Below, one piece after another: positions 2,072 to 57,695 of a DNA stretch of 64,000 nucleotides. The stretch is from the NCBI GenBank assembly GCA_051866635.1, contig JBJDXJ010000001.1, positions 15,765-79,764 of the forward strand, read 5' to 3'. Within the stretch, counting starts at the first letter, position 1, and each line of letters opens with the position of its first letter. The translations under genes and the position numbers were made by a program. Under the pieces are notes generated by a model. The model ran no database searches. It was not told where the DNA came from and worked only from the letters and a program-made list of their open reading frames with translations. Source of the stretch: Clostridia bacterium. GTDB lineage: Bacteria; Bacillota; Clostridia; UMGS1883.

Positions 2072-2121
2072 TTTCCCACCCCCTCTTCTGATTATATTAT
2101 TATATAATTTTATTGTAAACA

Positions 2122-2163
2122 TAAAAAAGCGACATCTTTTAATTCAAGGTGTCGCTTTTATTT
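2122..2163. terminator. Intrinsic terminator-like hairpin
   Basis: AAAAGCGACATCTT...AAGGTGTCGCTTTT with A/T tracts on both sides. Confidence 0.6.
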
Positions 2164-2204
2164 CAATTGCATCCAATCTCATTCTTATCATTTAAAGTAT
2201 CGTA

Positions 2205-2244
2205 TTGACATTTCTTGCATCAAACATTATAATGACACTGTGTC
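2205..2244 (+). promoter_or_regulatory. sigmaA promoter of the TetR gene with candidate operator
   Basis: TTGACA(2205)-17 bp-TATAAT(2228), followed directly by palindrome GACAC-T-GTGTC (2234-2244). Confidence 0.7.
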
Positions 2245-2304
2245 TAAATAGCAATAATAAGTTGTATTTCTAATAACGTGTTTATATATGTGAGGTGAAA
2301 GCCA

Positions 2305-2877
2305 ATGAAAGAAAACAGAAGAACAACTATGACCAAAACACTTTTGAAGGATAGTCTTCTTGAATTACTCAGGGATAAACCGCTTCCTAAAATAACTATT
2401 AAAGAAATATGCGAAAACGCAGACGTTAACCGTTCAACCTTTTATCTTCATTATCAGGATCCTTTCGCCCTTTGTGCGGAAATTGAAAACGACAGCATAG
2501 AAAAGATAAATACATGCCTTGCAAAAGTAAGTGTAAAAGACAATAGTGTGGAAGGGCTTAGTGAATTTTTGTCTTATATGAAAGCAAACGGTGAATTGTT
2601 TAAAATTCTTATGCGTCCCGATTTTAACAATTCATTCCGTGTCCGTTTTTCCGAAGTTGCCGTAAAAAGACTTACAGAGCTTGACTATCACGACAATTTA
2701 TCCGCTGAAGATAAGGATTACATTTTCCGATTTATGTTCATGGGTGCTTTAGGTATTATTGAAAAATGGGTTAAAAACGATTTTGACATTTCACCTGACA
2801 ATCTTGCGGCATTTATATTGTCACTTATGCCAAGCATAACAGAATCGATGCGTAAAAGAAAACAAATAATGTTATAA
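2305..2877 (+). CDS. TetR/AcrR family transcriptional regulator
   Basis: N-terminal HTH ITIKEICENADVNRSTFYLHY; RBS GAGGTG. Confidence 0.9.
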   Translation: MKENRRTTMTKTLLKDSLLELLRDKPLPKITIKEICENADVNRSTFYLHYQDPFALCAEIENDSIEKINTCLAKVSVKDNSVEGLSEFLSYMKANGELFKILMRPDFNNSFRVRFSEVAVKRLTELDYHDNLSAEDKDYIFRFMFMGALGIIEKWVKNDFDISPDNLAAFILSLMPSITESMRKRKQIML

Positions 2878-3110
2878 CAGGCCATAGATAAACTTGTTTT
2901 CATTCAATCGCGAAGGGTTCGGGAAAGAAGGTTTCCCGAATGAAATAGGCAGGGTAATCTTATTGCCCTGCCGAAAGTGGCGATTTTAGGGGGTTGTAGA
3001 CCCCTTGCACGAGAAATTGCCACTTTGTTCATTAGAAAAAATACAGACCTCAAAGTGCTGAAGGACGCAGTCCGCCTTTGAGGTCGCGTGTCGAAATGTC
3101 GACACGCTAA
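2878..3110 (+). repeat. Structured dispersed repeat (MITE-like element or ncRNA), copy 1
   Basis: About 85% identical (manual alignment) to the reverse complement of 39428-39645; 4-5 hairpins. Confidence 0.85.
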
Positions 3111-3145
3111 GACAAAACCTCGGATTTTCCGAGGTTTTGTCTTTA
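3108..3145. terminator. Bidirectional terminator
   Basis: AAGACAAAACCTCGGA-TTT-TCCGAGGTTTTGTCTT between convergent genes. Confidence 0.8.
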
Positions 3146-3244
3146 CTGGTTTTTATTATTCTGTTCGGGCTTTTGATTATTGCCCTTCTGCTGTGCCTGA
3201 GAGTTTTTCTGGTTGCTCTTTTTTTCGCTGTTTTTGTTACTCAA
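3143..3244 (-). CDS. 33-aa N/Q/K-rich peptide, candidate small spore protein
   Basis: MSNKNSEKKSNQKNSQAQQKGNNQKPEQNNKNQ; TTG start, RBS GGGGTGA, sigG-like promoter upstream, terminator downstream. Confidence 0.6.
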   Translation of the reverse strand: MSNKNSEKKSNQKNSQAQQKGNNQKPEQNNKNQ

Positions 3245-3284
3245 TTTAATCACCCCAAGTCTATTTTGCACATATGGGCGATTT

Positions 3285-3449
3285 TTATGCAATTGAATAT
3301 TCAAACATTTCGTAATGAAGTCTTGTTCCTATATCGGTTCCCAAAGGCAAAAGTGCCAATGCAATAAAAATTTCATTGCCCATTTCCAAATCTTCAAGGT
3401 AGGCATACTCACCTTCGATTTTTGTTACCACATAATCCTTCGGTTCCAT
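3285..3449 (-). CDS. 54-aa small protein translationally coupled to glmM (DUF3006-like)
   Basis: MEPKDYVVTKIEGEYAYLEDLEMGNEIFIALALLPLGTDIGTRLHYEMFEYSIA; TAATG overlap with the glmM stop. Confidence 0.75.
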   Translation of the reverse strand: MEPKDYVVTKIEGEYAYLEDLEMGNEIFIALALLPLGTDIGTRLHYEMFEYSIA

Positions 3450-4798
3450 TAAGACAATCTCTCCTCAATAAGCTTTGCCAATTCCTCAGCATCGCGGTCA
3501 ATTTCCTCTTGATTTTTGCCTTCAATCATAACTCTTACCAAAGGTTCTGTGCCTGAAGGACGGATTAAAACCCTGCCTTCGCCCGAAAACTTTTCTTCAA
3601 GTCTTTTAATGGCACACATAATAACTTCGTCTTCTGAATATGTATTGTCACCGCTTTTTGCAACTTTGGCATTTTTAAGAACCTGAGGGAAAATTTCGAT
3701 TATACCTGTAAGTTCAGAAAGCATCTTACCTTCTTCGCACATAACGGAAGCAAGGTTTACTGCACTTATCAAACCGTCACCTGTTGTATTGTGGTCAAGG
3801 AAAATAACGTGACCTGACTGCTCGCCTCCGATTGAATGACCGCTTTTCAGCATCTCTTCAAGGACATATCTGTCCCCCACCTTTGTCTTAAGAACATTTA
3901 TCTCATTCTTTTCACCCATAATGAAAAGGCCAAGGTTACTCATTATTGTTGCAACGAGTGTATTGTTCTTAAGTGTGCCTTTCTTTTTCATATTGTTGGC
4001 ACATATTGCCATAATGGCATCACCGTCTACAACATTTCCCTTTTCGTCAACTGCAAGCATTCTGTCTGCATCACCGTCAAACGCAAAACCTGCATCTGCA
4101 CCAAGCTCTACCACCTTTTTACAAAGGTTTTCCATATGTGTTGAACCGCAATTGTCATTTATGTTAATGCCATCAGGTGCATCGGAAATAACTTCTACCC
4201 TTGCACCCAAAGCTTCAAAGGCTTTCTTTGAGGTTTTATAAGATGCACCGTTTGCACAGTCAAGAACGAAGAATTTGCCGTCAAGTCTTTCTTTTGCAGT
4301 GCTTACCGCTTTTTCAATGTATTCTTCTATCTTTTCAGAATAATCATAAACACATCCCACATTTTCACCTACAGGTGCCGGAATACCGTCCTTTTCGCCA
4401 AGTATGTATGCTTCAATTTCGTTTTCAACATCGTCGGGAAGTTTATAACCTGTCTTGTCAAAAAATTTAATGCCGTTAAATTCAAAGCTGTTATGTGATG
4501 CACTTACAACAATACCTGCATCAAAGCCGTGCTTTTTTACAAGGTATGCCACAGCCGGAGTTGGTGCAACACCTAAAAGGTACACATCAGCACCAACGGA
4601 GGTAATGCCTGCAACCAAGGCCGACTCAAGCATTTGCCCTGAAATTCTCGTATCTCTGCCGATTAAGATTTTAACTTTATGTTCTGCGCCTCGGCTTAAC
4701 ACATAAGCCCCGCTTTTTCCTATTTTTGTAGCCAACTCGCTTGTGAGGTCCTTATTTGCTACCCCTCTAACGCCGTCTGTACCAAATAATCTTCCCAT
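3449..4798 (-). CDS. glmM: Phosphoglucosamine mutase
   Basis: LFGTDGVRG, VSASHN phosphoserine motif, FDGDADR, RPSGTEP. Confidence 0.97.
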   Translation of the reverse strand: MGRLFGTDGVRGVANKDLTSELATKIGKSGAYVLSRGAEHKVKILIGRDTRISGQMLESALVAGITSVGADVYLLGVAPTPAVAYLVKKHGFDAGIVVSASHNSFEFNGIKFFDKTGYKLPDDVENEIEAYILGEKDGIPAPVGENVGCVYDYSEKIEEYIEKAVSTAKERLDGKFFVLDCANGASYKTSKKAFEALGARVEVISDAPDGININDNCGSTHMENLCKKVVELGADAGFAFDGDADRMLAVDEKGNVVDGDAIMAICANNMKKKGTLKNNTLVATIMSNLGLFIMGEKNEINVLKTKVGDRYVLEEMLKSGHSIGGEQSGHVIFLDHNTTGDGLISAVNLASVMCEEGKMLSELTGIIEIFPQVLKNAKVAKSGDNTYSEDEVIMCAIKRLEEKFSGEGRVLIRPSGTEPLVRVMIEGKNQEEIDRDAEELAKLIEERLS

Positions 4799-9577: not shown

Positions 9578-9600
9578 TTATTTTCAGACTGTAGATGAAC

Positions 9601-10530
9601 TTATTTTTTAGGTCTTGCCACAGGTGCAGCACTCTTTACATAGATAACAGGGCCTTCTTCTTCATACTCGGGTGAAAACTCGCTATGAATTTCACCTCTT
9701 ACCCTAACGTAGCCGCCTTCTTCCAGCATTGAAGCCTTGTCGTATTTACAGACGTAGCCCAAAAACTGCATATCATCTTCACAGCAGGTCATAATCATGT
9801 TGCCTGCAAGAAAGTACCCTTCCCTGAAATAGTCGGGCTTTGCAACCTGTGCCACATATTCAACAGTTTTACCCTCGTAACGAGATGGGTTATCCATCAT
9901 GTCTATATACCATACAACGTAGGAATCCTTGTCAAGTGAAAGAACTTCATCATTAAGATTATATGGTAAGTCTTCTTCAAGCATAATATCCATTATACCT
10001 TCCTCGTCACTTACATACATAATCTCCGCCTGTGGTGAACAACGCTTGATACTGTCTTTGTAAAACTTAAAATTATCATCACGGGTACAGCGGTTCATTA
10101 CAACAGTTGTGGATGAACGGAGTTGGTCTGCAAATATACTTTTCATGTTGTTAAAGTAGCTTTCAAAAGTAGTTGCATCAATAACAGTAATCTGTTCTAC
10201 CAATCTCCATGTTCTTGGCATGGGAACAGAATATAAAGTCTGCATGCCCCAAACACCGTTATATTCAAAAATGACCATTGTGGGCTTGTACTTTTCATTA
10301 AGTTTACCGAAAACATCGCTGGTCACATTTTCCTTTTCATCTATTACATGCAAGTGGATATTTTCGGGAAGGGAGTCATATTCTACCTCTCCTTCTTCAC
10401 AAACAACAATAACAACCCTTTCTTTTTGCATTTTAGGGTCACGTATAATTGCATTTTGTATGAAGGTTGTTTTACCGCTTTCCAAAAATCCGTTAATTAT
10501 AAAAACTGGAACCTTCTTTTCACCGAACAT
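9601..10530 (-). CDS. COG0523/CobW-like GTPase with TIGR03943-like C-terminal domain
   Basis: GFLESGKTT, CEEGE, MTCCEDD. Confidence 0.85.
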   Translation of the reverse strand: MFGEKKVPVFIINGFLESGKTTFIQNAIIRDPKMQKERVVIVVCEEGEVEYDSLPENIHLHVIDEKENVTSDVFGKLNEKYKPTMVIFEYNGVWGMQTLYSVPMPRTWRLVEQITVIDATTFESYFNNMKSIFADQLRSSTTVVMNRCTRDDNFKFYKDSIKRCSPQAEIMYVSDEEGIMDIMLEEDLPYNLNDEVLSLDKDSYVVWYIDMMDNPSRYEGKTVEYVAQVAKPDYFREGYFLAGNMIMTCCEDDMQFLGYVCKYDKASMLEEGGYVRVRGEIHSEFSPEYEEEGPVIYVKSAAPVARPKK

Positions 10531-10536
10531 TATTTA

Positions 10537-11727
10537 TCAGCCCTTTCTGAAAAGTGTAGCTAATTTTTCCTCGTTAAGATTGGCACCGATAACGCAAATT
10601 TTGCCCGTGTAACAGGGTGCACCCTCTCTTATATCATGTTCTTCCGGTACATAGTCAAAGTATATCCAACCATTTTCTGACTGCACCATTCCCTTTGCAC
10701 GGAGTATAGCACCGTATTCACCGCTGTCAAGAGCATCAAGGATATTTTTAACTTCATCTTCACTATATTTCTTAACTGTTTCAAAGCCCCAGGAAGTAAA
10801 GGCTTCGTCTGCATGATGATGGTGGTGGTCATGGTCGTGACAGCCACATTCGCAGTTTTCGTCATGTTCATGATGATGTTCATGCTCTTCATGGTGGTAG
10901 TCGTGGTCGTGACAGCCACATTCGCAGTTTTCGTCATGTTCATGATGATGCTCATGTTCTTCATGGTGGTGGTCGTGGTCGTGACAACCGCAATGCTCGC
11001 CATGGTCATGATGATGTTCATGTTCTTCATGATGATGGTCGTGGTCGTGACAGTCGCAATGCTCGTCATGGTCGTGATGATGTTCATGCTCTTCATGAGC
11101 GTGCATTGCTTCATGGAGCAATTCTTCCTCCATCTTGCCCTTTTCAAAAGCTGACAAAATCTGTTCCTTTGACAATACATCAAGATGTGTTGTTATAACA
11201 TTAACATCTTTATTTATGTCACGAATAATTTCAACTGCCTGCTCAATCTTTTCTTCGCTTGCTTTATCCGTTCTTGTGAGAAGCACACAATTTGAGTACA
11301 AAATCTGATCTTCATAGAATTCTCCGAAGTTCTTTCTGTACATTTTACACTTTGTGGCATCTGCAACGGTAATACAAGAATCAACCTTGATATTTTCGTC
11401 ATTTGTGTTATTTACAGCCGCAATAACATCGCTGAGCTTACCTACACCTGAGGGTTCAATAATAATTCTGTCGGGAGAATAGGTTTTAACAGTTTCTTCA
11501 AGTGCCTTTGTAAAGTCACCAACAAGACTGCAACATATACAGCCTGAATTCATTTCGGTTATTTCAATGCCTGCATCCTGTAAAAAACCGCCGTCAACAC
11601 CTATTTCGCCGAATTCGTTTTCAATTAAAACAAGTTTTTCTCCTTTGAAAACATCACTGATAAGTCTCTTTATAAAAGTTGTTTTACCGGCACCTAAAAA
11701 TCCTGATATAATATTTACTTTTGTCAT
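10537..11727 (-). CDS. COG0523/CobW family metal chaperone GTPase with His/Cys-rich insert
   Basis: GFLGAGKTT, ENEFGE, GCICC, IEPSGVG, LRAKG. Confidence 0.93.
   Translation of the reverse strand: MTKVNIISGFLGAGKTTFIKRLISDVFKGEKLVLIENEFGEIGVDGGFLQDAGIEITEMNSGCICCSLVGDFTKALEETVKTYSPDRIIIEPSGVGKLSDVIAAVNNTNDENIKVDSCITVADATKCKMYRKNFGEFYEDQILYSNCVLLTRTDKASEEKIEQAVEIIRDINKDVNVITTHLDVLSKEQILSAFEKGKMEEELLHEAMHAHEEHEHHHDHDEHCDCHDHDHHHEEHEHHHDHGEHCGCHDHDHHHEEHEHHHEHDENCECGCHDHDYHHEEHEHHHEHDENCECGCHDHDHHHHHADEAFTSWGFETVKKYSEDEVKNILDALDSGEYGAILRAKGMVQSENGWIYFDYVPEEHDIREGAPCYTGKICVIGANLNEEKLATLFRKG
10813..11097 (-). repeat. Intragenic tandem repeat, 2x66 bp plus 2x72 bp, encoding His/Cys units
   Basis: HEEHEHHHDHxEHCxCHDHDHH twice, then HEEHEHHHEHDENCECGCHDHDxH twice. 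Confidence 0.9.
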
Positions 11728-11758
11728 AAAATTGCCTCTTTTCATCAAGTTTTTTCTA

Positions 11759-21004: not shown

Positions 21005-24000
21005 TTACTGAATTTTAGATGTATCAAATGTAAGTGTGTATGTACCGTCGCCGTTGTCTGTAAGAGTTGTTGCAACACTAATCCTTGAGTTATTGTTGTT
21101 AATTCTTACATATTCGTTCCAGTAATCTGTATTGATCTTTGTGTTTGTGCCTACGGGTGTAAGTGTTACAGTATATTTAGTACCATCTACTGTTGTTTCG
21201 CTTACTTCAAAAAATGCATCGCCTGTGTAAGAACCTGTTCCATCTGTACGAATTGTAATCTCTTTCACATCATCTGCATCAATATCGGACCATGTAAGAC
21301 GGATACCTGTCTGGTTTACATATGCGTTAAGCACCTTGTAAAGAATTTCAGACTGAATGGCTGAATTGTCATAATCTGTACCGTCTGTATTACCATTTGT
21401 AAGAAGGCCTGCCGCCACCTGATAAATACTTCTTGTAACCAAATTACCGTAGTACCTATTGCCGCCTATTTCAACATAAGGCTTAGCTGTAAACTTGCGG
21501 TTATAGTTTGATTCTGCAAGGTTTGTAAGTGCCGCAGTAAATACTTCGTCTACCTTCTGCCACTTAGTAGCCTTTATATCTACTACAGTTTCTTCGTCGC
21601 CTTCTGCCATGATTTCAACACCGAAGGTTGCATTTATAATGCTTGCAAGAGATTCGTTATTATCAACAGTTGCAATAAATCTTAAACCGCTGCCGCCATT
21701 TTCGGGAATTTTTCCGTTTTCGTCAACACCGTCACCGATTCTAACCTGGGCACCTTCAATCAAGCTGACGCCTACATTTGCCCCACGGTAAGCGGCACTT
21801 GCAGAAGGTGTAAGCGTCAACACACCGTCTGTAACTGTGTAAACGGTTGTATCATCCGTTACATAGGGTGCTTCTGTATAAACTTTGATTGTTTCACCTT
21901 CAGGAACCGTAAAGCTGTCTGCATATGCAGAAATATCTGTACCCATCTTTGTAACCTTATTTGCTCCCGAAACTGAAACTGCATTTGCAGAAACAATTTC
22001 AACATAAGCTGCTTTACCTTCGTATGTTCCGCCTTCCACAGCGGCTTCGCGCTCGGCTATATAAGCACCGCCCCACGCCGTGCAAAGTTTGAATGACAAT
22101 TTGCCAAGACCTAACGAATTTGCCGTCTTTATTGCCTCTGTAACATCAAAGGTTATATATCCAGCCGCATTTGTACTGGACTTTGAGAAAATTGCTCCCA
22201 AATCGCTTGTAAGAATGGGCGATGAGGATGGCGTATAGCTTCCCTTTTCCGTCTTTGTCCAGGAGGAATCATTTACAGCGTACGCCGCAAGCCTAATAGA
22301 ATTGTTCGAGTTTGAGAAGGTATTGCCATGCCATGTGCGTACATAGAAATGTGCCATAACAGCCTCATTTTCACCAACGGGAATAACAGGGAATTCAAAA
22401 AATCCCACACGGTAGCTACCAAGTGTTGACGGGGTATGCGTTCCATCTGCCACAGCCAAACCGTCTGCGTCGGAAAGGGGACCTCTGTTAGCTCCTTCTG
22501 CCGCACCCACAAATACGCTGTCTGTGTTAGTTGTGCCGATACCATAAACTACCTCTGCCTGAATGAATGCGTCCTCGTTTACCGCATACTTATTGTCCAC
22601 CTTATCCACAACGACTGTTGTATGTTCGGTTACATATGTTTCGGGGATATTGTAAAATGCACCCGTGCCATCGGAATGGATTGCAAAAATTTCTTTTCCT
22701 TCAACGGTAAAACTGCCGCCGCTCACATCGCCCACAGCTTCCTTTATCACTTCACCGTCGTCGTTTACAAACTTAGCTTTAACATAGCTGTTTGAATAAA
22801 CTTTAACATTTCTTATTTCCAAATCTCCGTCTGCCGCACCGTTACCGCGAAGGTTTATAGTGTTAACACAGTCAGGGCTCTGTTCTTTACGGAAGGTTTT
22901 GTTTTCTGCCTTGCCCACAGTGCCGTCACTTCCTGTGGCATATACTGAAAATGTGTCTGTGGAAGCGTCTGCTTTTACAAGAATTCTGTATGTCTCCCCT
23001 GCTTTAACAGAACTTTTAAGCACCGTGCCGCCGTCACTTGTACCTGTTTTATTACCACCCGTTGCTTTTAAATTACCGCCGTTGGGGCTTATACCGAAAG
23101 CACCGCTGCCCCACTTGGAGCCGTTATAACCAAAGTTTGCCCCCGTGTCGCTCACAGTGTTAATTACCATGTCAAATTCAATGTAAAATTCATCTGCCAA
23201 ATTAGCAGGGAAATAAATATTGTTGTCTGCACTACCCTTTGAAGAAGTGTCGCTTAAGCTGAAGCTCTCCGGCAGAACAGTAACCTTTGCTTCTGCCTTT
23301 AATTTGCTTCCCCATACGGTTCCGTAAACGGTATTTTCTTCCCCTTCCGTAAGATTTGATAAATCCCACTCTGTAACCGTTACTGTGGTGCTCGTGCCGC
23401 CTTTTGTGGTTGCCGTAATAGTAGTGGGAAGTACGGGCAGATTACTTCCTATAACAGTTGCACTTACAGTGTCAATGGTTTCAATATCGTCAACCGCATA
23501 TAAAACGTTAACAACATTTTCTGCCGCTTCCACAGTGTAGCTTGCAGGATTTGAGCTGTCTTTTCTGTAAATATTGCTGTCATATTCAATAATATCTGGA
23601 GCATATACCGAAAGGTCGATTGACTCACCTATATTAGCGTTTACCAAAACCGATGCGGCAATTTTTACCGACGTATCAGCTTTGTCAACAAAGTTAATTG
23701 TAGTTGCCGAATTATAATCAAAGGATATTGTGGTACTCTCCGGTGCGTCTATCTTTGTACCGCCTATATATAAGTCATAGGTGCCCGTGCGGTCAGATTC
23801 TGCCATTTTAAAGGAATAAGTAACCGTATTGCCTATAACTTCCTTTTGGGCAATATATCTTAAATCGCTGCTTTTCGCTGTAACAATGCTGACGTCCTTC
23901 TTTACCACAAGAAGGGTTGATTCCTGTGCATCTTCCGGGTTTTGGTATTTTACCGTAACAGAAACGGTTCTTGAAGTGTCAACTCCAACACCTGCAACAA

Positions 24001-24085
24001 GGCTTTCAATACTTGCTGCCGAGGCAAGATTTGTCATGGTAAAAACAAGCATCAGGCTTATTATCATAGCAATGTGCTTTTTCAT
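21005..24085 (-). CDS. Large secreted/surface multidomain beta-rich protein with no recognised catalytic domain
   Basis: Signal peptide MKKHIAMIISLMLVFTM; Ig/MucBP-like segments; FDVT (DNRLRE/CBM96-like) module; C-terminal GAQVRIG...SGLRF domain; RBS AAGGAG. Confidence 0.8.
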   Translation of the reverse strand: MKKHIAMIISLMLVFTMTNLASAASIESLVAGVGVDTSRTVSVTVKYQNPEDAQESTLLVVKKDVSIVTAKSSDLRYIAQKEVIGNTVTYSFKMAESDRTGTYDLYIGGTKIDAPESTTISFDYNSATTINFVDKADTSVKIAASVLVNANIGESIDLSVYAPDIIEYDSNIYRKDSSNPASYTVEAAENVVNVLYAVDDIETIDTVSATVIGSNLPVLPTTITATTKGGTSTTVTVTEWDLSNLTEGEENTVYGTVWGSKLKAEAKVTVLPESFSLSDTSSKGSADNNIYFPANLADEFYIEFDMVINTVSDTGANFGYNGSKWGSGAFGISPNGGNLKATGGNKTGTSDGGTVLKSSVKAGETYRILVKADASTDTFSVYATGSDGTVGKAENKTFRKEQSPDCVNTINLRGNGAADGDLEIRNVKVYSNSYVKAKFVNDDGEVIKEAVGDVSGGSFTVEGKEIFAIHSDGTGAFYNIPETYVTEHTTVVVDKVDNKYAVNEDAFIQAEVVYGIGTTNTDSVFVGAAEGANRGPLSDADGLAVADGTHTPSTLGSYRVGFFEFPVIPVGENEAVMAHFYVRTWHGNTFSNSNNSIRLAAYAVNDSSWTKTEKGSYTPSSSPILTSDLGAIFSKSSTNAAGYITFDVTEAIKTANSLGLGKLSFKLCTAWGGAYIAEREAAVEGGTYEGKAAYVEIVSANAVSVSGANKVTKMGTDISAYADSFTVPEGETIKVYTEAPYVTDDTTVYTVTDGVLTLTPSASAAYRGANVGVSLIEGAQVRIGDGVDENGKIPENGGSGLRFIATVDNNESLASIINATFGVEIMAEGDEETVVDIKATKWQKVDEVFTAALTNLAESNYNRKFTAKPYVEIGGNRYYGNLVTRSIYQVAAGLLTNGNTDGTDYDNSAIQSEILYKVLNAYVNQTGIRLTWSDIDADDVKEITIRTDGTGSYTGDAFFEVSETTVDGTKYTVTLTPVGTNTKINTDYWNEYVRINNNNSRISVATTLTDNGDGTYTLTFDTSKIQ

Positions 24086-24114
24086 ACTTTTGTCTCCTTT
24101 CATCATTTTCACAA

Positions 24115-27100
24115 TCAATACTGGAAGGACCTGATGTACTTGCAACGGAGACCATCGTTCCAAACCATAGTGTCGTCAGGCTCTTCTTCCCAGCCGCCTA
24201 TACCTGTATTGAGGATAAGACGCATATTTTTCTGGAAAGTGATTGTGTCGTGATTACTGCCACGCTGGAAAAGCGTGCCGTCCACATAGAATTTGACATA
24301 GTCATAGCCCCAGTCAAGGGCAAAAGTATGATAAGATGTCGCAACATTAATACTGCTGTTTGTCTGCTTACCGAAAAGATTGTTTGTGTCATTCTCACCG
24401 TGTATAGCGGTGTGCCATGCATTATGACCGTACTTTGAGGAAAGGGTTTCAAAAATATCAATTTCAGGGGGCCATGAATCCCGTCCCGTAAGCCAGAAGG
24501 CGTTCCAGTAACCGATGGGGCTGTTGGGCTGTTTAAAGCTACCCTCAAGATAGCACTGCTTATTGTATACTTTGTTTTGTATACTTACAACGCCAACATA
24601 ACCCTTCCATTTCACCCAGTCGGTTCTGCCGAAATCGCCGTTGTACTGTTTACCGGTTTCACCGGATGTATCTGTGGGCCACGCATTTGATGCAATTTGT
24701 GTAGCCTTTAAAAGCAGCTCGCCGTTTTCCACAATTACATTATTTTTTGTGATAAGAGCTGAGAAATTATAAGAATCGTTTGTGGGATTGTTGCTCTTCC
24801 AGGGGTAATTTGTCCACCACTGTGAGGAAATTGAATTTCCGTAGAAGTTGTCGCACACATACGCACTTGCTTCACTTCTCAAATAGAAGGTTGCCTGTGC
24901 CGCCGCCGAAATTGTTGATGGCTTCACAGTGCCGGTTATATAATCGCTTGTTGTATCGTAAAGATACTTATCCTCCATGGCACTTCCAGCGGAGTTTGGT
25001 GCCTGTAAATATGTGCGGTATTTATATGTTTTGCCCGTATAATATCCCACGTTATCAGTTGTTTCCTTGTAGAAGGTGGCTTTTGCGTAGAAACTGCCCG
25101 TGTTTTCCAGCTTCTTCAAATAGAAAGCATCACCCATTTCTGCTACAACAAAATACCCCGGCATAGACACAGACTCTAATGACACACCTGTACCGATAAG
25201 TCCGCGTCTTTCAACAAAGCGTGTAAGGGCAGGATTTTTATCTGCCGCAACGGAAAGAGTGGCGTTTCCTCCGTTGTGATAGAAATATCTGCCGTAATAG
25301 TCACCGCTTGTTGTGGGATAAGTTGAAAGGCGTGTCGCTTCCAGACGTATAATTCCATTTACGGGATCATCGCCCGTCAAAGTGTTGCTTTCGCTTTCCA
25401 CTTGACGTAAATTTATGTTTGAAACCGTCATCTGAACCTTTTCTGCCGCACCTGTATTAAACACCAAAGTGTTTGCCGTAAGCCCTGTCCATGCACTGTT
25501 TCTTGTAAGCTCATCATCGCAATAGGAAAAGTTCACAAGCTGTGTTTCCGTCACGGAGCTGTCAGATACGGTCACATAACAACGCCTTTTCAGCGGTGAA
25601 ACAAGAAGGGAAAACTTAAGTGTTTCATCTTTTTTGAAGGTATTTTCAAAAAGACTTACGCTATCGCCCTCGTTAAAATAGTTTGACAATATTTGATTAA
25701 TCTTAACATTGTTTCCGCTGTTCTCAAACCTTAACTGTATAGCCGCATAGTTATTTAAATCTGCTCCGCCTGTGATAATGCCGTCCGTTACGGAAATTCC
25801 GCTACCTGTGGCATCTGTGGAAGTGCCCGAGATTGATGAAGGTATTGTGAGATCAAAGCTTAATTCAAAATCGCCCCGTCCTTCGGGAAGGTCAAGTGTT
25901 TTTTGAGCCAATACACCGCCTGCACCTCCGGGACCTTCCTCTCCTCCGTAAATTTCAATCTCACTTACTCTTATCCACCCGTTGTTAGAGGAATCTGTTC
26001 TCGCATAAATTGTATATCTTACGTATCTTGCAGAAACATTGTCCACGGAAACAGTCTGAATGCTGTTTGTGGACTGTGCCGTCCTTTTTGAAATTACTGT
26101 TGTGTAGCTGTCTCCGTCCTCGGAAACCTCAACAGAATAATTATATGTTCTGCTTGCGCCTAAGTCAAAACCTATACCTATAGTGGAAACTGTATATTTT
26201 GCTCCCAAATCTGCAACAAGTGTTGCCGGAGCCGCATCCGTAACACCCGATGCTGTCCATATTGTGCTTGTATTGCCATCTATTGTGTTGGAGGGCTTAT
26301 TTGCACTCTCCGGTGTCTGCGATGCACTAACACTTGTAATTGTAAGTTTTTCCCCTGTTGTATCACCTGTACGGTCCATATTGTCGTAAAGGAGCAGACC
26401 ATCAGAGCTGCTTACGGCATAAAGGGCTGAACCTAAGGTTGGAGTGGAACCTGTTGTTGTCATTTCATCCATGGCACTTATCTGCCAGTTATCGTCTGCT
26501 TCGGCATTATTCATAAGCATTTCGCCCAAAGTGTCGTCAAAGCCGTACGCCTCAATTTCTTTAATGCCCGTTATGCTTCCGCTATTTACGCCGTTAATTG
26601 TTATACGAATATATCTCGCCTTTACTGTAGCAACGTCAAAATACTGTAAACTATTCGTTTTTGTACTCGTCTGACTGTCTAAAAGTGTTTTAAAATTCTC
26701 TCCGTCCTCTGAAACAGAAACTGAGAATATGTACTCTTTACTGCTACCTCCGTCAAAAGCAATTCCCACACGTGAAAGAATATTGTTTTCGCCTAAATAT
26801 GCAGTGATACTTTCATCAGATCCTGTAACAGCCCATTTTGTGCTTGTACTGCCGTCAAAAGCATTTCCCGCAGGAGATGACGTTGTTTCAACATTAGACG
26901 CCCATGCGTCGGAGCTTTCTACATCAAGCTTTTCGCCGTATAAGCTGTCAACCAAAGTACAGCTTTCGCTTGACATCGACAAAACAGGCTGCATTGAACT
27001 GTTCCACACAAAAATCTGTGCCTCGCCTTGCGATATGTCTGCTGTGTATACACCATAGACAGTGGAATTTGCCTCTACGGTGACAACGTATTTATCAAGG

Positions 27101-27321
27101 TTTTTAAATGATTCATCCGCTTCAAAGGTGGCAAGGTAAACTACCGCCTCTGCACTCTCTGCACTCAAATTTTCCAACTTGACGGAAAAAGCAACGTCGC
27201 TTTCCGTCCTTCTGCCTGAAATTTCCACATTAATGTCATTTGCCGCCGCAGGTATTACGAGAGTTGAAATTATTAAAATCGAACACAATATAACTGCCAA
27301 TACCTTTTTCAATTCACCCAT
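24115..27321 (-). CDS. Secreted modular GH16 glycoside hydrolase with two F5/8 (CBM32) modules and an AbfB/CBM42-like module
   Basis: AFDGSTSTKW and IDGNTSTIW...ARYVR discoidin repeats; VSLESVSMPGYF; catalytic AFWLTGRDSWPPEIDIFE; start uncertain (27333/27321/27312). Confidence 0.88.
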   Translation of the reverse strand: MGELKKVLAVILCSILIISTLVIPAAANDINVEISGRRTESDVAFSVKLENLSAESAEAVVYLATFEADESFKNLDKYVVTVEANSTVYGVYTADISQGEAQIFVWNSSMQPVLSMSSESCTLVDSLYGEKLDVESSDAWASNVETTSSPAGNAFDGSTSTKWAVTGSDESITAYLGENNILSRVGIAFDGGSSKEYIFSVSVSEDGENFKTLLDSQTSTKTNSLQYFDVATVKARYIRITINGVNSGSITGIKEIEAYGFDDTLGEMLMNNAEADDNWQISAMDEMTTTGSTPTLGSALYAVSSSDGLLLYDNMDRTGDTTGEKLTITSVSASQTPESANKPSNTIDGNTSTIWTASGVTDAAPATLVADLGAKYTVSTIGIGFDLGASRTYNYSVEVSEDGDSYTTVISKRTAQSTNSIQTVSVDNVSARYVRYTIYARTDSSNNGWIRVSEIEIYGGEEGPGGAGGVLAQKTLDLPEGRGDFELSFDLTIPSSISGTSTDATGSGISVTDGIITGGADLNNYAAIQLRFENSGNNVKINQILSNYFNEGDSVSLFENTFKKDETLKFSLLVSPLKRRCYVTVSDSSVTETQLVNFSYCDDELTRNSAWTGLTANTLVFNTGAAEKVQMTVSNINLRQVESESNTLTGDDPVNGIIRLEATRLSTYPTTSGDYYGRYFYHNGGNATLSVAADKNPALTRFVERRGLIGTGVSLESVSMPGYFVVAEMGDAFYLKKLENTGSFYAKATFYKETTDNVGYYTGKTYKYRTYLQAPNSAGSAMEDKYLYDTTSDYITGTVKPSTISAAAQATFYLRSEASAYVCDNFYGNSISSQWWTNYPWKSNNPTNDSYNFSALITKNNVIVENGELLLKATQIASNAWPTDTSGETGKQYNGDFGRTDWVKWKGYVGVVSIQNKVYNKQCYLEGSFKQPNSPIGYWNAFWLTGRDSWPPEIDIFETLSSKYGHNAWHTAIHGENDTNNLFGKQTNSSINVATSYHTFALDWGYDYVKFYVDGTLFQRGSNHDTITFQKNMRLILNTGIGGWEEEPDDTMVWNDGLRCKYIRSFQY

Positions 27322-27447
27322 CGCCTTTCTCACTTATTAGTCATTTGCCATATATTATGCAGACAAAATATACTTGGTTATATTTTACACCCTTTTTTCC
27401 ACTATTGTCAAATTTTTTTTAATTTATTTTTTAATGCTATAATGTAA

Positions 27448-38980: not shown

Positions 38981-39352
38981 TTAAAATTTGTATACTTCAT
39001 CAGTTTCACGGTTTCTGTACTCGTGCTTTTCGTAGTAGCCGATAAGCTCCCCTGACTCATCACGAAGTGCTACCATGTACACATCTTTGTTTTCTTTTTC
39101 ATTGTAGTAAGTAAATACCCTGTTATTTTCTTTGCTACACTTAAAGTGTTCAATGACCTTTTCTATCATTTCCCGTGATTTTTCATTATGGCAAGCCATA
39201 AGGCTTTTACCCACAAGCTCTTTGCCGCCCCGCTTTTTATACCTTTCACATGCGGCAGGGTTCATACAAATAATTTCATGGTTTAGATTGCAGATTACAA
39301 CAGCACATCTGTCCTCTTCTACCATGCTTTTAAAAAACTTTCCAAGCTCCAT
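38981..39352 (-). CDS. Stand-alone PAS domain protein
   Basis: AVVICNLNHEII.MN...LVGKSLMACH...GELIGYYE; promoter TTGACA-17-TATCAT at 39413-39385. Confidence 0.85.
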   Translation of the reverse strand: MELGKFFKSMVEEDRCAVVICNLNHEIICMNPAACERYKKRGGKELVGKSLMACHNEKSREMIEKVIEHFKCSKENNRVFTYYNEKENKDVYMVALRDESGELIGYYEKHEYRNRETDEVYKF

Positions 39353-39427
39353 TTTGTAAAACCTCCTCGTTGCCTTACATAATAATGATAGCCGTGTCTT
39401 TTAAATATGTCAAGTTTTTATATATTT

Positions 39428-39645
39428 TTTCGACACTCGATCTCAAAGGCGGACTACGTCGTTGGGCTCTTTGAGGTCTGTAATTTTGAGGAACAAAGTG
39501 GCAATTTCTCGTGCAAGGGGGCTCCGCCCACCTAAAATCTCCACTTTCGGCAGAGTAATACGATTACCCTGCCTATTTTATTTAGGAAACCTTCTTTCCC
39601 GAACCCTTTGCGATTGCGAGAAAAATAAGTTTATCGACAGTCTGA
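39428..39645 (-). repeat. Structured dispersed repeat (MITE-like element or ncRNA), copy 2
   Basis: Reverse complement aligns over about 210 bp with 2887-3096. Confidence 0.85.
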
Positions 39646-39669
39646 GGCGGCAGAAAGTTCTGCCGCCTG
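39645..39669. terminator. Terminator-like hairpin after the AraC gene
   Basis: AGGCGGCAGAA-AG-TTCTGCCGCCT. Confidence 0.65.
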
Positions 39670-39674
39670 AATTT

Positions 39675-40556
39675 TTAGTTTTTCTTTTTAACCGCCCGAA
39701 GTTCTATATATCCTCTCTCGCCTATAGGCTCAAGCTGAATACGGGGGTTTTCATCGTCCCATTCATAGCCGATTGCCAACGGATTGTACTTAGTCATTGA
39801 CTGTTGCACAGCATTAATTGCTTCGCAGTAATCCTCCTCACGGAAGGGTTCTCCTGTAAAGCTTAGATATTCCGCTTCGGGAAGTTCTATAACATCAAAA
39901 CCATCGGGAATTTTTCCGTCATAATTAATTTCTACCTCAACGCCCTGCACATATGTTGATGTTCCGGGCTTTTTCATGCTCTCAGGTAGCCACATACAAA
40001 CAGGCTCGCCGCAGAGTGAATTCATGCTTAAAAGCGTACCCCATACGTCACAGCCCACCTCCTCGCAGTAGGCAAAGTAATCCTCAGCTTTCTTTCCACG
40101 CTTCAGTATCACCTTGCGATTGGGCTTTTTAATAAGTTGAATAAAGACATTTTTTACGTTTTCCATTTGGGTCAAATCCTTTCTCATTTCTCTGAATTTT
40201 ACACCGTAAGGAACGAAAAGACATATGGGAACAGGGTTATTTGCATATTCCTTTGGATTACAGCCAAATTCTCTTACAAAGGCTCTTTGGTAGCCGTCCA
40301 CACTGCCAAAGCCCATTTCAAAAGCTACGTCACAGATTTTTACATTTTCGTTTTTTAGCTTTTCGGCAGATTTTGAAAGGCGAAATCTGCGGATATAATC
40401 AGATGGGGTTATACCTGTCAGCATTTTAAAAAGCCTGTATGAATACCAGGGCGAAAACAAAGCGGCGCCTGCCAAGTCTGCCATGGTAATCTCCTCGTAC
40501 AGATGCGTCTTTATATAATCCTGCATCCGCTGTACTGCATTAACCTGTTCGTTCAT
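39675..40556 (-). CDS. AraC family regulator
   Basis: FSPWYSYRLF...GFGSVDGYQRAF. Confidence 0.92.
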   Translation of the reverse strand: MNEQVNAVQRMQDYIKTHLYEEITMADLAGAALFSPWYSYRLFKMLTGITPSDYIRRFRLSKSAEKLKNENVKICDVAFEMGFGSVDGYQRAFVREFGCNPKEYANNPVPICLFVPYGVKFREMRKDLTQMENVKNVFIQLIKKPNRKVILKRGKKAEDYFAYCEEVGCDVWGTLLSMNSLCGEPVCMWLPESMKKPGTSTYVQGVEVEINYDGKIPDGFDVIELPEAEYLSFTGEPFREEDYCEAINAVQQSMTKYNPLAIGYEWDDENPRIQLEPIGERGYIELRAVKKKN

Positions 40557-40610: not shown

Positions 40611-40814
40611 CTATTTTTGCTGTTTAATAATTTTAACACTTTGATTTTTCATTGAGATTTTTCCTATCTCATATCCGTATTGCTCCAACTCACTTTTATA
40701 CCTTAAAAAAGAATGGTCAATCTCAAATCCAAGGATTCTTTCAATTTCATCAAAAGTTAACATATCAGGCTCATTTGTTTTTATGTACTCCCACAATGGG
40801 TCATATTTACTCAC
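40611..40814 (-). CDS. Small hypothetical protein (MSKY.PL...LTF.EIE family)
   Basis: 67 aa; overlaps the upstream stop. Confidence 0.75.
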   Translation of the reverse strand: MSKYDPLWEYIKTNEPDMLTFDEIERILGFEIDHSFLRYKSELEQYGYEIGKISMKNQSVKIIKQQK

Positions 40815-42009
40815 AGCTTTCTATCTCCCTTATCGCTTTTTTTATATCTTTCAAAACCAAACCTTGCATACTGTCGGGGTATTTTGTCACATCTGCACTA
40901 CTTAGTGCAGATAAAATATCTTCTTTTAAATCCTTTTTGTGTTTTACCATCTCGGGCAAAAATGAAATACACTGCCTTGCCGTAATAGGTTTAATATCTG
41001 TAATATGCTTTAAGTATTCGTCGATTATTTCATCTATTTTAAAATCCGTATCCCATTTTGCGTTTACGCTGATAAGTTTTAATCCGCGGTTACGCACATA
41101 AGAATTACTGCTTGAAAGCATTTTTATAAATTTGTCCATATACTTATATACCGCGTCTGAATTTTGTGCTGTTTCCGAAAGACAATTCATTGCACCGCAG
41201 GCTACCGTGTTATTTTTGTCCTCTAATAAATTAACCAGACTTTCTATATCAGCTTTACGGTTTTCTTCTGTGTATTTCATCGGTATATAGCGGATATTGT
41301 TTGTAATCTGCTCCGCAGCTGTATCAACAAAGCCCAGGCGGAGGTACACCTCTGCCGCATAAGGCGCGGAATTTACTGTAAATTCCCGTATTGCATAATC
41401 ATTTTTCATATATTCAAACAGTTTTCTGCCAATGCCTTTTTTGTGGTGGTCCGCTTTTACAAAAAACAGGCTTATGTGCTGCTTTTCACGCATTGCCAGT
41501 ACGCCAACCATTTCTTTTCCTTCAAACGCTCCGTAAAACTTTAAGCTTTCCACAAAGCCGTTGTTATCAAGGGTGTTCATAAATTCCTGAACACCTTCTT
41601 TTGAATAATCTTTTGCATCAAATTCTAAAAACACACTCCGCACAAGCTCCAACGCACAGGGGATTTCTTTCCTTGAAAGCTTTTTAGCCTTAATTTCGCT
41701 TTTTCTCTTCGGCATTGGCAAACTGTCGTACATTGCTTCAAAAAGCTTTTTTAAAAACATTTTATCCTCTACGTTGTCTACAAGGAGCATTTCTTTGGCT
41801 CCCTCATAGGGCGGCTCATACCTTGCATTTTTCATCATTTTTATCGCCGCCTCCACAGGGTTTACCAAAAGGCGGTCGTCTGCGACATATGCCGCAATTT
41901 TTTCCCGGTAATAAATTATGTATTCGCCCATCATCTGCTTGTAGGTTATATTATCTGTTTCTGACAGACATTCCAATATATAATTTAAGTATTCCTTGCT
42001 TGTTGCCAA
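40807..42009 (-). CDS. TfoX-N + GNAT + HEAT-like triple fusion protein
   Basis: [11 protein letters not shown]...PYEGAK; [16 protein letters not shown]...LGF; NSYVRNRG...KPITARQC. Confidence 0.8.
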
Positions 42010-42536
42010 ATTTCCCACTCCTCTTTTGTAAGGTGCGTTACATGCTCCTCTCTCACATCGCCCATCAATTCGCAGGGCACATTGTAATTTGTGTGATGAT
42101 ACTTAAATCCGCATTTTTCCTGTGCACGGCGTGACTTTTCGTTGCCGTCATAATAGCCGCACCATATTAAGTTGAGGTTTAATTCCTCAAAACAATATCT
42201 TATTATTTCCTGTGCCGCTTCGGGGATTAAGCCCTGACCCCAATAGGGTTTACCTATCCAATACCCTATTTCCCCTTCACCTTCTTTTGTTGGGATGTTA
42301 ACGTTAAACATAATGCCTATACTGCCCACAGGGAGCATAGTTTCTTTAAGCACAACAGCAAAGGTTCCTTCTTTACTTAATACGGTTTCTATTATTTCAC
42401 GGCTGTTTTCAACGCTTGTATGTACCTGCCAGCCTGCAATAGGTCCAACATCTGGGTCTTTTGCATATTTGTACAGCTCTTCCGCATCTGCATTTTCCCA
42501 CGGGCGAAGAATCAGTCTTTTTGTTTCAAGTGTCAT
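41985..42536 (-). CDS. RimJ/RimL-type GNAT acetyltransferase
   Basis: [38 protein letters not shown]. Confidence 0.92.
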
Positions 42537-42994
42537 TATTTCATACCTCTTTTTACAAATGTTAAAGGCACATCCATACGCTCTGCCACCTGCTCTATTG
42601 TCATACCGCTGTCTATAAAACGCCTTGTAACAGCTTTTATATCTTCTCCCACTTCGATAATGTGCATATCAGGATCGTAAAAGCGTACAACCCTCTGCCC
42701 CCAGCTATGCTCTTTAACTTTGTGAACATATTTTATATCAAGGCTCGACAGCTTTTTTATAAAGCTGTCAAAATCCTCCTCTTCAAAATATAGCTCAAAA
42801 TCATTGCCGCCGTAGGTTATATTATCATTTTCAATAAAGCTAATCCAGCTTTCCTTCGTTTGCATGCAAACTCCGCCTGTCAAAGTCACATTTGCACCTA
42901 AGTCTACAGTTTTATTAAGTCCAAGCACTTTTTTGTAAAAACTTACCGACCTTTCAATATCTGATACAACCAATAACGGATTTTTAAATTTCAT
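42536..42994 (-). CDS. VOC/glyoxalase family protein
   Basis: [23 protein letters not shown]. Confidence 0.92.
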
Positions 42995-43007
42995 ATTATT
43001 TCACCCT

Positions 43008-43757
43008 TTATTTTTTCAGTATTCGCTCCAATGATGCAATATCGGTTAAATTTACCGTTTCAAATTTCCCCTTATAAAATACAGCCCAGTTGTTGAAAAC
43101 GCATGGCAAAGATTTTGCTTTTTCAAGGGTGTCCACTTTTTTTAAAGATAGCGGGACACTATGTTCTTCGCAATATTTTTTTATAATTTCAACTCTGTCG
43201 TAAACATAGGGGCATTGCATATCATAATAGATTGTCAAATCTTTGTTTTTAATCTTTTCTTCTTTGGCGTTTTGAGCAAACTTTGGCACAGTTTTGTCAA
43301 AAGACAGTGCCAAAAGCTCATAGCCGTTATCGGTAGCGTCAACTGTTTCAAATCCGTACTTTTTTGCAAATGCCATATCTGAAAGCCACGCCTTCTGCTT
43401 TTTTGCCCCCAGCATACAAACGCCGGATTTGCCTTTTCCCTTAGCATCGGCAATGCAATACTCCATAAGCTCCTGTCCGTAGCCACTTCCTTTTAAATCC
43501 CCCGTAACCCACAGGCAGTATATATAGTAATAATTATTGCCCACTATGGGAACCCACGCTTTTTCAAGAGGTGCATATTCAATAAAAGCACAGCCTTTTA
43601 CATTGAGCTTTCTGAAAATATGCCCCTCCGAAAGCCTGTCCTTTAGCCATTTCCGCTTTGCCTCAACGCCTGCATGGGGCTTTTTAGTGCGGATAATACA
43701 GCACAAATGCTCTGTGTCAATATTTTCATCTGTTAAATTAATAAAATCGCTGTTCAT
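43008..43757 (-). CDS. GNAT acetyltransferase with YoaP domain
   Basis: EHLCC, FIEYAP, CLWV...KGSGYG, QCPY. Confidence 0.88.
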   Translation of the reverse strand: MNSDFINLTDENIDTEHLCCIIRTKKPHAGVEAKRKWLKDRLSEGHIFRKLNVKGCAFIEYAPLEKAWVPIVGNNYYYIYCLWVTGDLKGSGYGQELMEYCIADAKGKGKSGVCMLGAKKQKAWLSDMAFAKKYGFETVDATDNGYELLALSFDKTVPKFAQNAKEEKIKNKDLTIYYDMQCPYVYDRVEIIKKYCEEHSVPLSLKKVDTLEKAKSLPCVFNNWAVFYKGKFETVNLTDIASLERILKK

Positions 43758-43780
43758 ATTTCCACCCTCTGTTTATCAGC

Positions 43781-44266
43781 TTATATAATGACCGAACTCC
43801 TTTTTTCCATTAATACAGTATCCTGCCATTTTCCAAATCTGTCTTTTGCAATTTTTTCCCTGTAGCCAATTTCTCTGAATCCACATTTTTTGTGTATTGC
43901 AATGCTTGCTTTGTTAGTGGAAAAAATTGCGGCATATAAGCTCCAAAATCCGGCTTTTTCGCTTTCCATGCACTCATATTCTAATAGCTTTGTTCCGATT
44001 CCTTGTCCATGATACTGTTCATCAATGTATATACTGACTTCTGCTACACCTCTGTAAGCATATCTATCGGAAACCTTCGACAGAGCGACCCAACCCACAA
44101 TAGTATTATCTTCTTCATATACATATCTACATTCTGCTATATGAGAAGCATCCCATTCTTCAAAAGACGGACATACAGCATTAAATGTAGCTGTACCGCA
44201 CTCTATCCCCTGTTTATATATTTCTTTAACTCTGTCATGGTCACTGTTCGTCATTTTTCTAATCAT
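43781..44266 (-). CDS. Phosphinothricin acetyltransferase-like GNAT
   Basis: ATF, AEVSIYI, GQGIGTKL, WQDTVLMEKR. Confidence 0.88.
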   Translation of the reverse strand: MIRKMTNSDHDRVKEIYKQGIECGTATFNAVCPSFEEWDASHIAECRYVYEEDNTIVGWVALSKVSDRYAYRGVAEVSIYIDEQYHGQGIGTKLLEYECMESEKAGFWSLYAAIFSTNKASIAIHKKCGFREIGYREKIAKDRFGKWQDTVLMEKRSSVII

Positions 44267-44306
44267 TTTTCCGTCCACTTCAATTGTCTTTGTTATTAAT
44301 ACAACC

Positions 44307-45062
44307 TTACAGCCCTTTTTCGTCAAGGATTTTTTCAAATTTCTTTTCCGAAAGTATTTCGTGAGTTATGAACTCGCCGTTATAAAACAAGCTGAACGCC
44401 GTAAATGGAATGGGGGCGTTCTGTGCCTGTTCACGTGTAGTTATATGAACTGTATTAAATTTAACGCCCCGCTTCTCGGCTATACCTTGAAGAATTGGCA
44501 CATATTTTGCCGTAAAAGGGCATTGATTTGTAAAATATACCGTAAATCCTTCTTCAATTTCTTTTGTTTCTTGTACCGAAGGTTTAAACACAGGTTTTTG
44601 GGCATTTTTATCAAAAGGCAGATACATTAATTCAAAATAATCTCTCGCTCTGTCGCAGGTTTCAAAGCCCTTGTATTTCATATATTTAGGGTCGGAAAGA
44701 AATCCCATTTTCTTTTTGGAGGATAAAACAACAAGCCCTTTTTTATTTTTGCTTTTACTGTCTTTAATACATTCCTCCAAAAGCAGATTTGAATACCCGT
44801 GTCCTTTAAACTGCCCCGATACCCAAAGACAGTCTATATACATATAGCCCTCAGCCTCCACAGGTGCCCATGCGTATTCGGCAGGAATATATTCAATAAA
44901 GCATTTGCCCCGTACATTACCTTTGAGAAAAACGAGCCCCTCGTCAAGTCTGTCTTTAAGCCACGCCTTTTTACTCATTACCTGGCAGTCTTTGTTGTTG
45001 GAAATTGCACAGCAAATATGCTCATTTTCGATGTTTTCGTGTGTTATTTTTATAAATTCCAA
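44307..45062 (-). CDS. GNAT acetyltransferase with YoaP domain (paralog)
   Basis: EHICC, FIEYIP, CLWVSGQFKGHGY, QCPF. Confidence 0.88.
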   Translation of the reverse strand: MEFIKITHENIENEHICCAISNNKDCQVMSKKAWLKDRLDEGLVFLKGNVRGKCFIEYIPAEYAWAPVEAEGYMYIDCLWVSGQFKGHGYSNLLLEECIKDSKSKNKKGLVVLSSKKKMGFLSDPKYMKYKGFETCDRARDYFELMYLPFDKNAQKPVFKPSVQETKEIEEGFTVYFTNQCPFTAKYVPILQGIAEKRGVKFNTVHITTREQAQNAPIPFTAFSLFYNGEFITHEILSEKKFEKILDEKGL

Positions 45063-57680: not shown

Positions 57681-57695
57681 TAGATGAAAGGCTGT

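Follow-up and report, generated by a model that had tools for sequence, protein, structure and literature searches.

A discrete unit of approximately 215 to 230 nt, built of five hairpins (H1 to H5), occurs twice in the 64-kb stretch of Clostridia DNA analyzed here (the window) and once more in the genome of an uncultured Oscillospiraceae bacterium, and in all three places, it lies 3′ of a gene for a DNA-binding regulator and in the same sense as that gene. From these sequences, we suggest that the unit may be a hitherto undescribed structured RNA module that regulator transcripts bear in their 3′ tails, a reading to which we give about an even chance of being correct. The five hairpins are common to the three copies, the second of which retains half of H5; compensated base pairs, a strand asymmetry in the fold, and a consistent position behind regulator genes are the observations on which this reading is built.

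RESULTS

Extent, likeness, and state of the copies

The preliminary description of this DNA had reported two diverged copies of a multihairpin element in inverted orientation, alike at approximately 85%, and a repeat search of the window recovered both where they had been placed, with 87% identity over 201 nt (Table 1). The matching arms comprise 141 nt (2897 to 3037 with 39484 to 39624; 87%) and 60 nt (3037 to 3096 with 39428 to 39487; 87%), and a MAFFT alignment of the two copies agrees with the repeat search. Each of three conserved blocks (30, 24, and 14 nt) has exactly two occurrences in the window; two matches for the 30- or 24-nt block were obtained in none of 100 shuffles, and two matches for the 14-mer were obtained in 9 of 100. 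The 30-nt block (3001 to 3030, within H3) is identical in copies 1 and 2 and has three differences in the third copy, its central 19-mer being the same in all three. Copy 1 was matched by nhmmer over 2880 to 3102 (E = 4e-75), and a covariance model (R1), itself built from the three copies, matched copy 1 over 2878 to 3106 (258.5 bits) and copy 2 over 39419 to 39644 (249.7 bits).

The two window copies had been described as having the same architecture, which holds for four of the hairpins; the homology of copy 2 ends at approximately 39428, inside the loop of H5, which lacks its 3′ half there. Copy 2 also has the most broken pairs (48:66, 111:149, and 121:133 in alignment A3 and 7:42 in alignment A5) and the weakest fold, and because of these defects, it looks like a decaying duplicate, while copy 1 and the third copy look intact.

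Other repeats were also seen in the window. Positions 10826 to 11091 carry a tandem repeat of three overlapping copies (128-nt reference, 66 to 72 nt apart, 74 to 84% identity), within a gene with a CobW/HypB/UreG domain (10537 to 11748, minus strand) that lies beside a second CobW-domain gene. A 40-nt direct repeat (48618 to 48657 and 57646 to 57685, plus strand; 75% identity), ending in TTGTCAATAGAT, is intergenic at both sites, 9 kb apart, and could represent a shared promoter or operator.

Table 1. Features of the element, its copies, and their surroundings (window coordinates, except where the third copy, L006, is named)
Feature	Coordinates	Strand	Description
Copy 1	2878-3108	+	Intact whole element; first base immediately follows the TetR stop codon
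Copy 2	39428-39644	-	Degenerate; H5 truncated
5′ arm, copy 1	2878-2916	+	Without conserved helix; carries invariant GATAAACTT
H1	2917-2941	+	10-bp stem; GAAGG loop invariant
H2	2948-2972	+	11-bp stem
H3	2974-3026	+	14-bp outer stem; 3′ bulge GCACGA invariant; inner hairpin
H4	3046-3085	+	Outer stem, internal loop, inner hairpin
H5, right end	3086-3107	+	9-bp hairpin
TetR-family gene 5′ of copy 1	2305-2877	+	Pfam TetR_C_8, E = 2.6e-16
Intrinsic terminator beside copy 1	3109-3143	+	Called on + only; 16 pairs, T-rich tail, perfectly symmetric stem
AraC-family gene 5′ of copy 2	39675-40556	-	Pfam HTH_18, E = 7.1e-17, and HTH_AraC
Hairpin P0, between AraC stop codon and copy 2	39645-39668		T-run on + only, antisense to the element
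Promoter-like site of PAS gene, at right limit of copy 2	39385-39413	-	11/12
PAS-domain gene 3′ of copy 2	38981-39352		
Hairpin analogous to P0, L006	1837-1876		40 nt, after Rrf2-family gene

Third copy and database searches

A search for further copies, as proposed in the preliminary description, yielded one among species-representative genomes. These were scanned with the 19-mer from the block identical in both window copies, for which approximately four chance matches are expected; the scan returned six loci (L001 to L006), the window's own source genome not being among them, and five of the six share just a 19- to 22-nt seed by BLAST. The true copy (L006, 1872 to 2100) lies in an uncultured Oscillospiraceae MAG and aligns by BLAST with copy 1 over 159 nt (82%) and with copy 2 over 167 nt (78%), so that the known carriers are two gut-type Firmicutes. 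Neither nhmmer nor model R1 found further copies in the window or at the six loci; a candidate at 9585 to 9687 of the window (15.4 bits, rough E = 0.018) lies within coding sequence and was discarded as noise. Copy 1 had no blastn match (distant mode) in the plasmid and phage collections.

Comparison with Rfam, another of the checks proposed, matched no described family. At the gathering thresholds of Rfam 15, a tRNA alone was found in the window, and at E values of up to 10, the best score, 32.7 bits, fell short of the cutoff of 59, with the better matches falling on the terminator (3076 to 3187) and not on H1 to H4. The sole tRNA of the window is a tRNA-Leu (50971 to 51053, minus strand; anticodon AAG) whose variable arm is long. 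Class C group II introns, which target terminators, are characterized by domains V and VI and an intron-sized RNA; no match to Intron_gpII or group-II-D1D4 was obtained at E values of up to 10, and the unit is just approximately 220 nt long.

Coding readings of the element were rejected. No frame is open across all three copies, and the stretch encoding a UUG-started peptide (LHEKLPL.., of 18, 20, and 11 amino acids) is invariant at every codon position, which indicates conservation at the level of the nucleotide rather than the codon. A miscalled protein over the element was sought with a 125-amino-acid antisense frame of copy 2 as the query, and none of the 29 candidates reached an E value of ≤0.01. 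Pairing with the start regions of the elements' own regulators was likewise discarded: by RNAduplex, which permits very long loops, the ranks of these regions, out of 64, were 50 and 45 with copy 1 and 60 and 43 with copy 2.

No account of such an element was found in full-text literature searches, the large motif catalogues being covered in part. The 19-mer has no occurrence in five of the seven listed supplement files of PMC8040213, and this catalogue or that of bioRxiv 10.64898/2026.10.21.760802 could still contain the motif.

Secondary structure and base-pair compensation

All of the hairpins named in the preliminary description are present, their stem arms in copy 1 being TTCGGGAAA/TTTCCCGAA, GGCAGGGTAAT/ATTGCCCTGCC, AAAGTGGCGATTT/AAATTGCCACTTT, and GACCTCAAAG/CTTTGAGGTC, and a fifth, H5, was added at the right end. 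The folding energies are −118.5 kcal/mol for copy 1 plus its terminator (z = −10.35) and −91 kcal/mol for copy 2 (z = −5.07), and the z score of the third copy is −11.66; for each of the three, a fold as good was seen in none of 200 shuffles. With DNA parameters, the same helices form as a single strand (z = −7.73).

Across the three copies, two of which are paralogues, 10 of 61 counted pairs are altered on both sides and are still paired. Within H1 to H3 (alignment A3), 5 of 43 pairs are double-changed and 96.9% of 128 cells are paired, compared with 40 to 58% of cells and 0 or 1 double-changed pairs in a control in which the 3′ partner was slid by 1 to 3 columns; within H4 and H5 (alignment A5), 5 of 18 pairs are double-changed and 92.5% of 53 cells are paired, compared with 26 to 47% in the slid control. 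Between copy 1 and the third copy, nine pairs are double-changed and three are changed on a single side, all of them remaining paired, with one pair broken and two in gaps. A shuffle control matches the observed covariation in 5 or 6 of 500 instances, and related sequences can yield such covariation without structure; for three related sequences, the compensation is suggestive of selection acting on the structure.

The changes are spread over all five hairpins. In H1, the column pair 48:66 is C-G in copy 1 and U-A in the third copy, a compensated change, and is C.A in copy 2, which also has G.U at 49:65, in keeping with an earlier remark that this hairpin is weakened there. In H2, 79:99 and 80:98 are altered on both sides, and 81:97 and 83:95 are wobble swaps, the only kind of change in this hairpin between the two window copies, as had been observed. 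The inner stem of H3 contains two pairs with double-sided changes. The changes that had been singled out beforehand, at 124:130 (U-A to G-C) and 125:129 (U.G to C-G), were confirmed. Three pairs of H4 are double-changed between copy 1 and the third copy, as are two pairs of H5 relative to the third copy. A putative closing helix (RNAalifold columns 36 to 40 with 220 to 225; five pairs plus a bulge, with one mismatch) competes with the better-supported H5 and was not retained.

Sequence conservation is uneven along the unit. Identity between copy 1 and the third copy is 80% from the 5′ end up to and including H3, the GAAGG loop and the unpaired GCACGA among this part, and 60% in H4 and H5, where pairing is kept; hardly any variation between species is seen in H1 and its loop, the junction between H2 and H3, or the outer stem of H3 and its unpaired bulge. 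The four inner loops are GNA triloops, as reported, in both window copies and only there, the third copy having UUUA and CUUG in these places; an argument for folding as single-stranded DNA that had been drawn from the triloops loses its footing because the loops are not kept in that copy.

Two asymmetries indicate that the structure belongs to one strand. The counted helices contain 17 G.U cells and 3 C.A or A.C cells, and the minimum free energies of the sense and antisense strands are −98.4 and −83.0 kcal/mol (copy 1), −71.5 and −60.1 kcal/mol (copy 2), and −89.1 and −77.4 kcal/mol (third copy), an advantage of 11 to 15 kcal/mol for the sense strand in all three.

Gene context and transcription signals

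The genes immediately 5′ of the three copies encode regulators of the TetR, AraC, and Rrf2 families, each in the same sense as the element, an arrangement that the preliminary description had noted for the TetR and AraC genes of the window. Regulator-type DNA-binding domains occur in 5 of the 66 window ORFs, and the chance that the third copy alone would be adjacent to a regulator is approximately 0.08, for an association that rests on n = 3. The gap between stop codon and element is 0, 30, or 33 nt, and the latter two gaps hold a hairpin without a T-run in the sense direction. In none of the three copies is there a sense-direction terminator-like site between the gene and the element, from which we infer that the two are probably cotranscribed; the first sense-direction terminator after the TetR gene is that at 3109 to 3143, beyond the element. 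Homology among the copies stops before this terminator, placing it outside the repeated unit, and its symmetric stem and position suggest that it may also end minus-strand transcripts. A canonical sense-direction terminator follows the element in one of the three copies (copy 1), and the left-end hairpins of copy 2 and the third copy are canonical terminators for the opposite strand.

Beyond the terminator of copy 1 are minus-strand genes that read toward it, including glmM (3449 to 4798). A 53-codon, TTG-started frame (3143 to 3304, minus strand) encoding a very hydrophilic K/N/Q-rich peptide (..KNSEKKSNQKNSQAQQKGNNQKPEQNNKNQ) sits between the terminator and a 54-amino-acid ORF that abuts glmM. 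A convergent PstS-like gene (2105 to 3010) ends with its stop codon 5 nt beyond the third copy. The AraC gene ahead of copy 2 is itself directly preceded by a run of five consecutive GNAT acetyltransferase and/or YoaP-like genes with a glyoxalase/bleomycin-resistance-like gene (40807 to 45062, minus strand).

The K/R-rich C-terminal tail of the TetR protein is common to its orthologues (24 aligned, of 120 listed among 429 found, with orthologues at 73 to 83% identity among those obtained) and is thus native and not supplied by the element, which starts after the gene and not inside it; on the same ground, the A-rich stretch that precedes the element was rejected as part of the unit. The copies have no promoter-like site in common, and the 5′ arm of the window copies contains none. 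The third copy has sigma-70-like sites on the plus strand at 1801 to 1828 (11/12), before the left hairpin, and at 1876 to 1903 (10/12), in the 5′ arm; given the strength of these sites and the absence of any at the matching positions of the window copies, the third copy might possess a promoter of its own.

Dispersal of the unit

The flanks of the copies are 42 to 56% identical, which is background, compared with 69 to 80% for the unit, and in a tblastx comparison of L006 with the window, the element alone matches. The unit has accordingly reached three unrelated loci as a discrete piece, and these comparisons support the view that it was moved or copied as a module. The imperfect inverted termini of the preliminary description proved to be just a TGTCGA core: the ends are joined by terminal inverted repeats in none of the three copies, and every inverted pair (seed of 6, at least 8 nt) is local, the core alone recurring. 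No target-site duplication was found, the left flanks being ..ATAA, ..GCCT, and ..CCCT and the right flanks being ACAAAA.., AAATAT.., and TTTACT... H1 (TTCGGGAAA..) and H5 (GCGTGTCGA..) have no common sequence that would make them similar end hairpins. The 64 kb contain two copies, at 87% identity, and none of the 69 window ORFs matches a transposase, integrase, or reverse transcriptase family, in agreement with the earlier statement that a cognate transposase is absent from the window.

All 8 bins have a negative GC skew, and the minus strand carries 61 of the 66 ORFs, as for one replichore with co-oriented genes. Relative to replication, the two window copies run in opposite directions, while each has the orientation of its upstream gene; this weakly favors, for n = 2, a transcription-linked over a replication-linked single strand. 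The 36-kb interval between the copies was considered as an island or composite element and rejected, since it contains housekeeping genes such as leuS, obg, rplU, rpmA, and thrC. Genes typical of spore formers (SpoVAC, YabP, and YabQ) are present in the window, as are two adjacent large minus-strand ORFs (21005 to 27333), one of 1,052 amino acids without a Pfam match and the other of 1,072 amino acids with F5/8 type C and GH16 domains.

DISCUSSION

We propose that the element would act in single-stranded form, with the same sense as the upstream gene, and that it may be transcribed as the 3′ tail of the preceding regulator mRNA, with a promoter of its own just upstream as a further possibility in the third copy. 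The variable but compensated hairpins H2, H4, and H5 could serve as a scaffold and as a barrier to 3′-to-5′ exonucleases, and the near-invariant H1, with its GAAGG loop, and H3, with its GCACGA bulge, could form a recognition surface for a partner, either protein or RNA. Such a partner might be engaged while the element is still part of the mRNA, in cis, or once the element has been released as a stable small RNA, and copying of the unit as a discrete cassette would have brought it to unrelated loci. A sharp-edged unit at three unrelated loci needs a copying mechanism, unlike an ordinary RNA gene, and this counts against the RNA reading, as do the ability of a DNA single strand to form the same helices and to tolerate G.T pairs and the presence of opposite-strand terminators at the left ends.

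The main rival proposal is that the unit is a nonautonomous mobile DNA element, IS200/IS605-like, REPIN-like, or other, whose hairpins are used in single-stranded DNA and whose enzyme is encoded elsewhere in the genome, which we regard as unlikely although deserving of serious attention. Such an element would account for the sharp limits of the unit at unrelated loci, where flanks at 42 to 56% identity border a unit at 69 to 80%, and a decaying copy would be expected of a selfish repeat; the stability of the helices with DNA parameters (z = −7.73), strand-specific G.T pairing that fits a single active DNA strand, and a patchy distribution (one true match in the species-representative 19-mer scan) can be read in the same way. 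The ends, however, are joined by an inverted repeat in none of the three copies and lack a target duplication, the sequences of H1 and H5 are unrelated whereas IS200/IS605 elements have paired end hairpins, and the copies are few (two in the 64 kb), 13% diverged, and, in the window, opposite relative to replication. None of the 69 window ORFs belongs to a transposase, integrase, or reverse transcriptase family, and five distinct compensated helices with invariant unpaired segments exceed what end recognition would need. The preliminary description had left the choice between a nonautonomous mobile element and an undescribed structured RNA; the former, read as a MITE or IS1182-like derivative, sits poorly with the absence of terminal inverted repeats and target duplications, the presence of two copies in the 64 kb, and the transposase count of 0 of 69, and the latter fits better, with no Rfam 15 match and 10 of 61 pairs compensated.

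Two further explanations retain RNA but assign it a different strand or a less specific role. The position of the unit at gene 3′ ends, its very stable stems, and the conservation of structure and not sequence in H2, H4, and H5 would suit a generic cluster of 3′ hairpins, REP/BIME-like, that stabilizes or terminates the upstream mRNA without a specific partner or any sequence-specific function; we think this improbable, in that pure stabilizing does not need the invariant H1 loop, H2-H3 junction, H3 stem and bulge, 30-nt block, or 19-mer. Very improbable, in our judgment, is an RNA of the opposite strand, i.e., an antisense small RNA or the 3′ tail of a convergent gene, ended by the left-end hairpin and its T-run. 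The antisense strand is 11 to 15 kcal/mol weaker in all three copies, the 17 G.U cells would turn into C.A mismatches, and the terminator of copy 1 precedes, and does not follow, an antisense reading. The plus-strand terminator and T-run beside copy 2 (39645 to 39668) do favor it, as does a weak promoter-like site (9/12) upstream, at 39354 to 39383 (plus strand), but this best antisense context belongs to the copy that is structurally the most damaged; the third copy has a minus-strand terminator (1876 to 1837; 17 pairs plus a T-run) downstream of the convergent PstS-like gene, but T-runs in these positions correspond, on the complementary strand, to Lys-rich codons for the C termini of the regulators, and the TetR tail is native.

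If the structured RNA module in regulator 3′ tails is real, it would define a family that joins a compensated multihelix noncoding RNA fold to a mobile-element-like dispersal, so far always behind regulator genes, and offers a test case for how mRNA 3′ tails gain ready-made structured modules. New bacterial RNA motifs are common. A more ambitious version, in which a mobile RNA-level module has been copied specifically onto the 3′ ends of transcription factor genes, so that a common tail, through one shared partner or small RNA, would link their regulons posttranscriptionally, is quite unlikely. Should the unit be a rare hairpin-dependent DNA element, it would be an ordinary entry in the catalogue of bacterial repeats.

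Comparison with known systems

By class, the element is probably best placed among dispersed structured intergenic elements or orphan structured RNAs, the defining features of none of the families tested being found in it. Like the raiA motif RNA (PMC10861870), an orphan noncoding RNA of Clostridia, it is approximately 200 nt long, multistemmed, and found in Firmicutes, such RNAs having a function that is obscure or only recently probed. Neither raiA nor any other Rfam model matches the element, which is apparently narrow in distribution and dispersed within a genome.

Among mobile or mobilizable sequences, integron attC sites also lie behind an ORF in fixed orientation, act as a folded single strand, and occur as similar copies behind unrelated genes, but each is one imperfect hairpin of 57 to 141 nt with core sites and an integrase nearby, whereas the element has five hairpins in housekeeping surroundings with integrase matches in 0 of 69 ORFs. 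IS200/IS605-type elements have similar subterminal hairpins and a constant orientation to replication, neither of which is seen here (orientation, n = 2). REP, BIME, and REPIN sequences resemble the element in being extragenic, hairpin-forming, dispersed units behind genes that have compensated stems and may stabilize the upstream mRNA; they are imperfect palindromes of 20 to 40 nt, often in inverted pairs, with copy numbers in the tens to hundreds, and are tied to a RAYT transposase, in contrast to five unrelated hairpins within 220 nt, two copies in 64 kb, and no RAYT in the window. The BOX, RUP, bcr1, and Correia elements of Firmicutes and Neisseria share a strong predicted fold and, at 100 to 200 nt, are often cotranscribed in 3′ tails and are sometimes modular, but they have many copies and terminal inverted repeats and/or target duplications, neither of which end features the element has.

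The features by which an RNA borne in a 3′ untranslated region is defined, namely, the same sense as the gene, contiguity with it, and no intervening terminator, are present in all three copies. CpxQ, SroC, and DapZ are likewise structured RNAs immediately 3′ of a coding gene and in its sense, ending, as copy 1 would, at the gene's terminator; these are single-locus RNAs, whereas the element is a homologous predicted module behind three unrelated genes. Functionally, its closest counterparts would be structured repeats of the REP/BIME and BOX types and small RNAs derived from 3′ untranslated regions.
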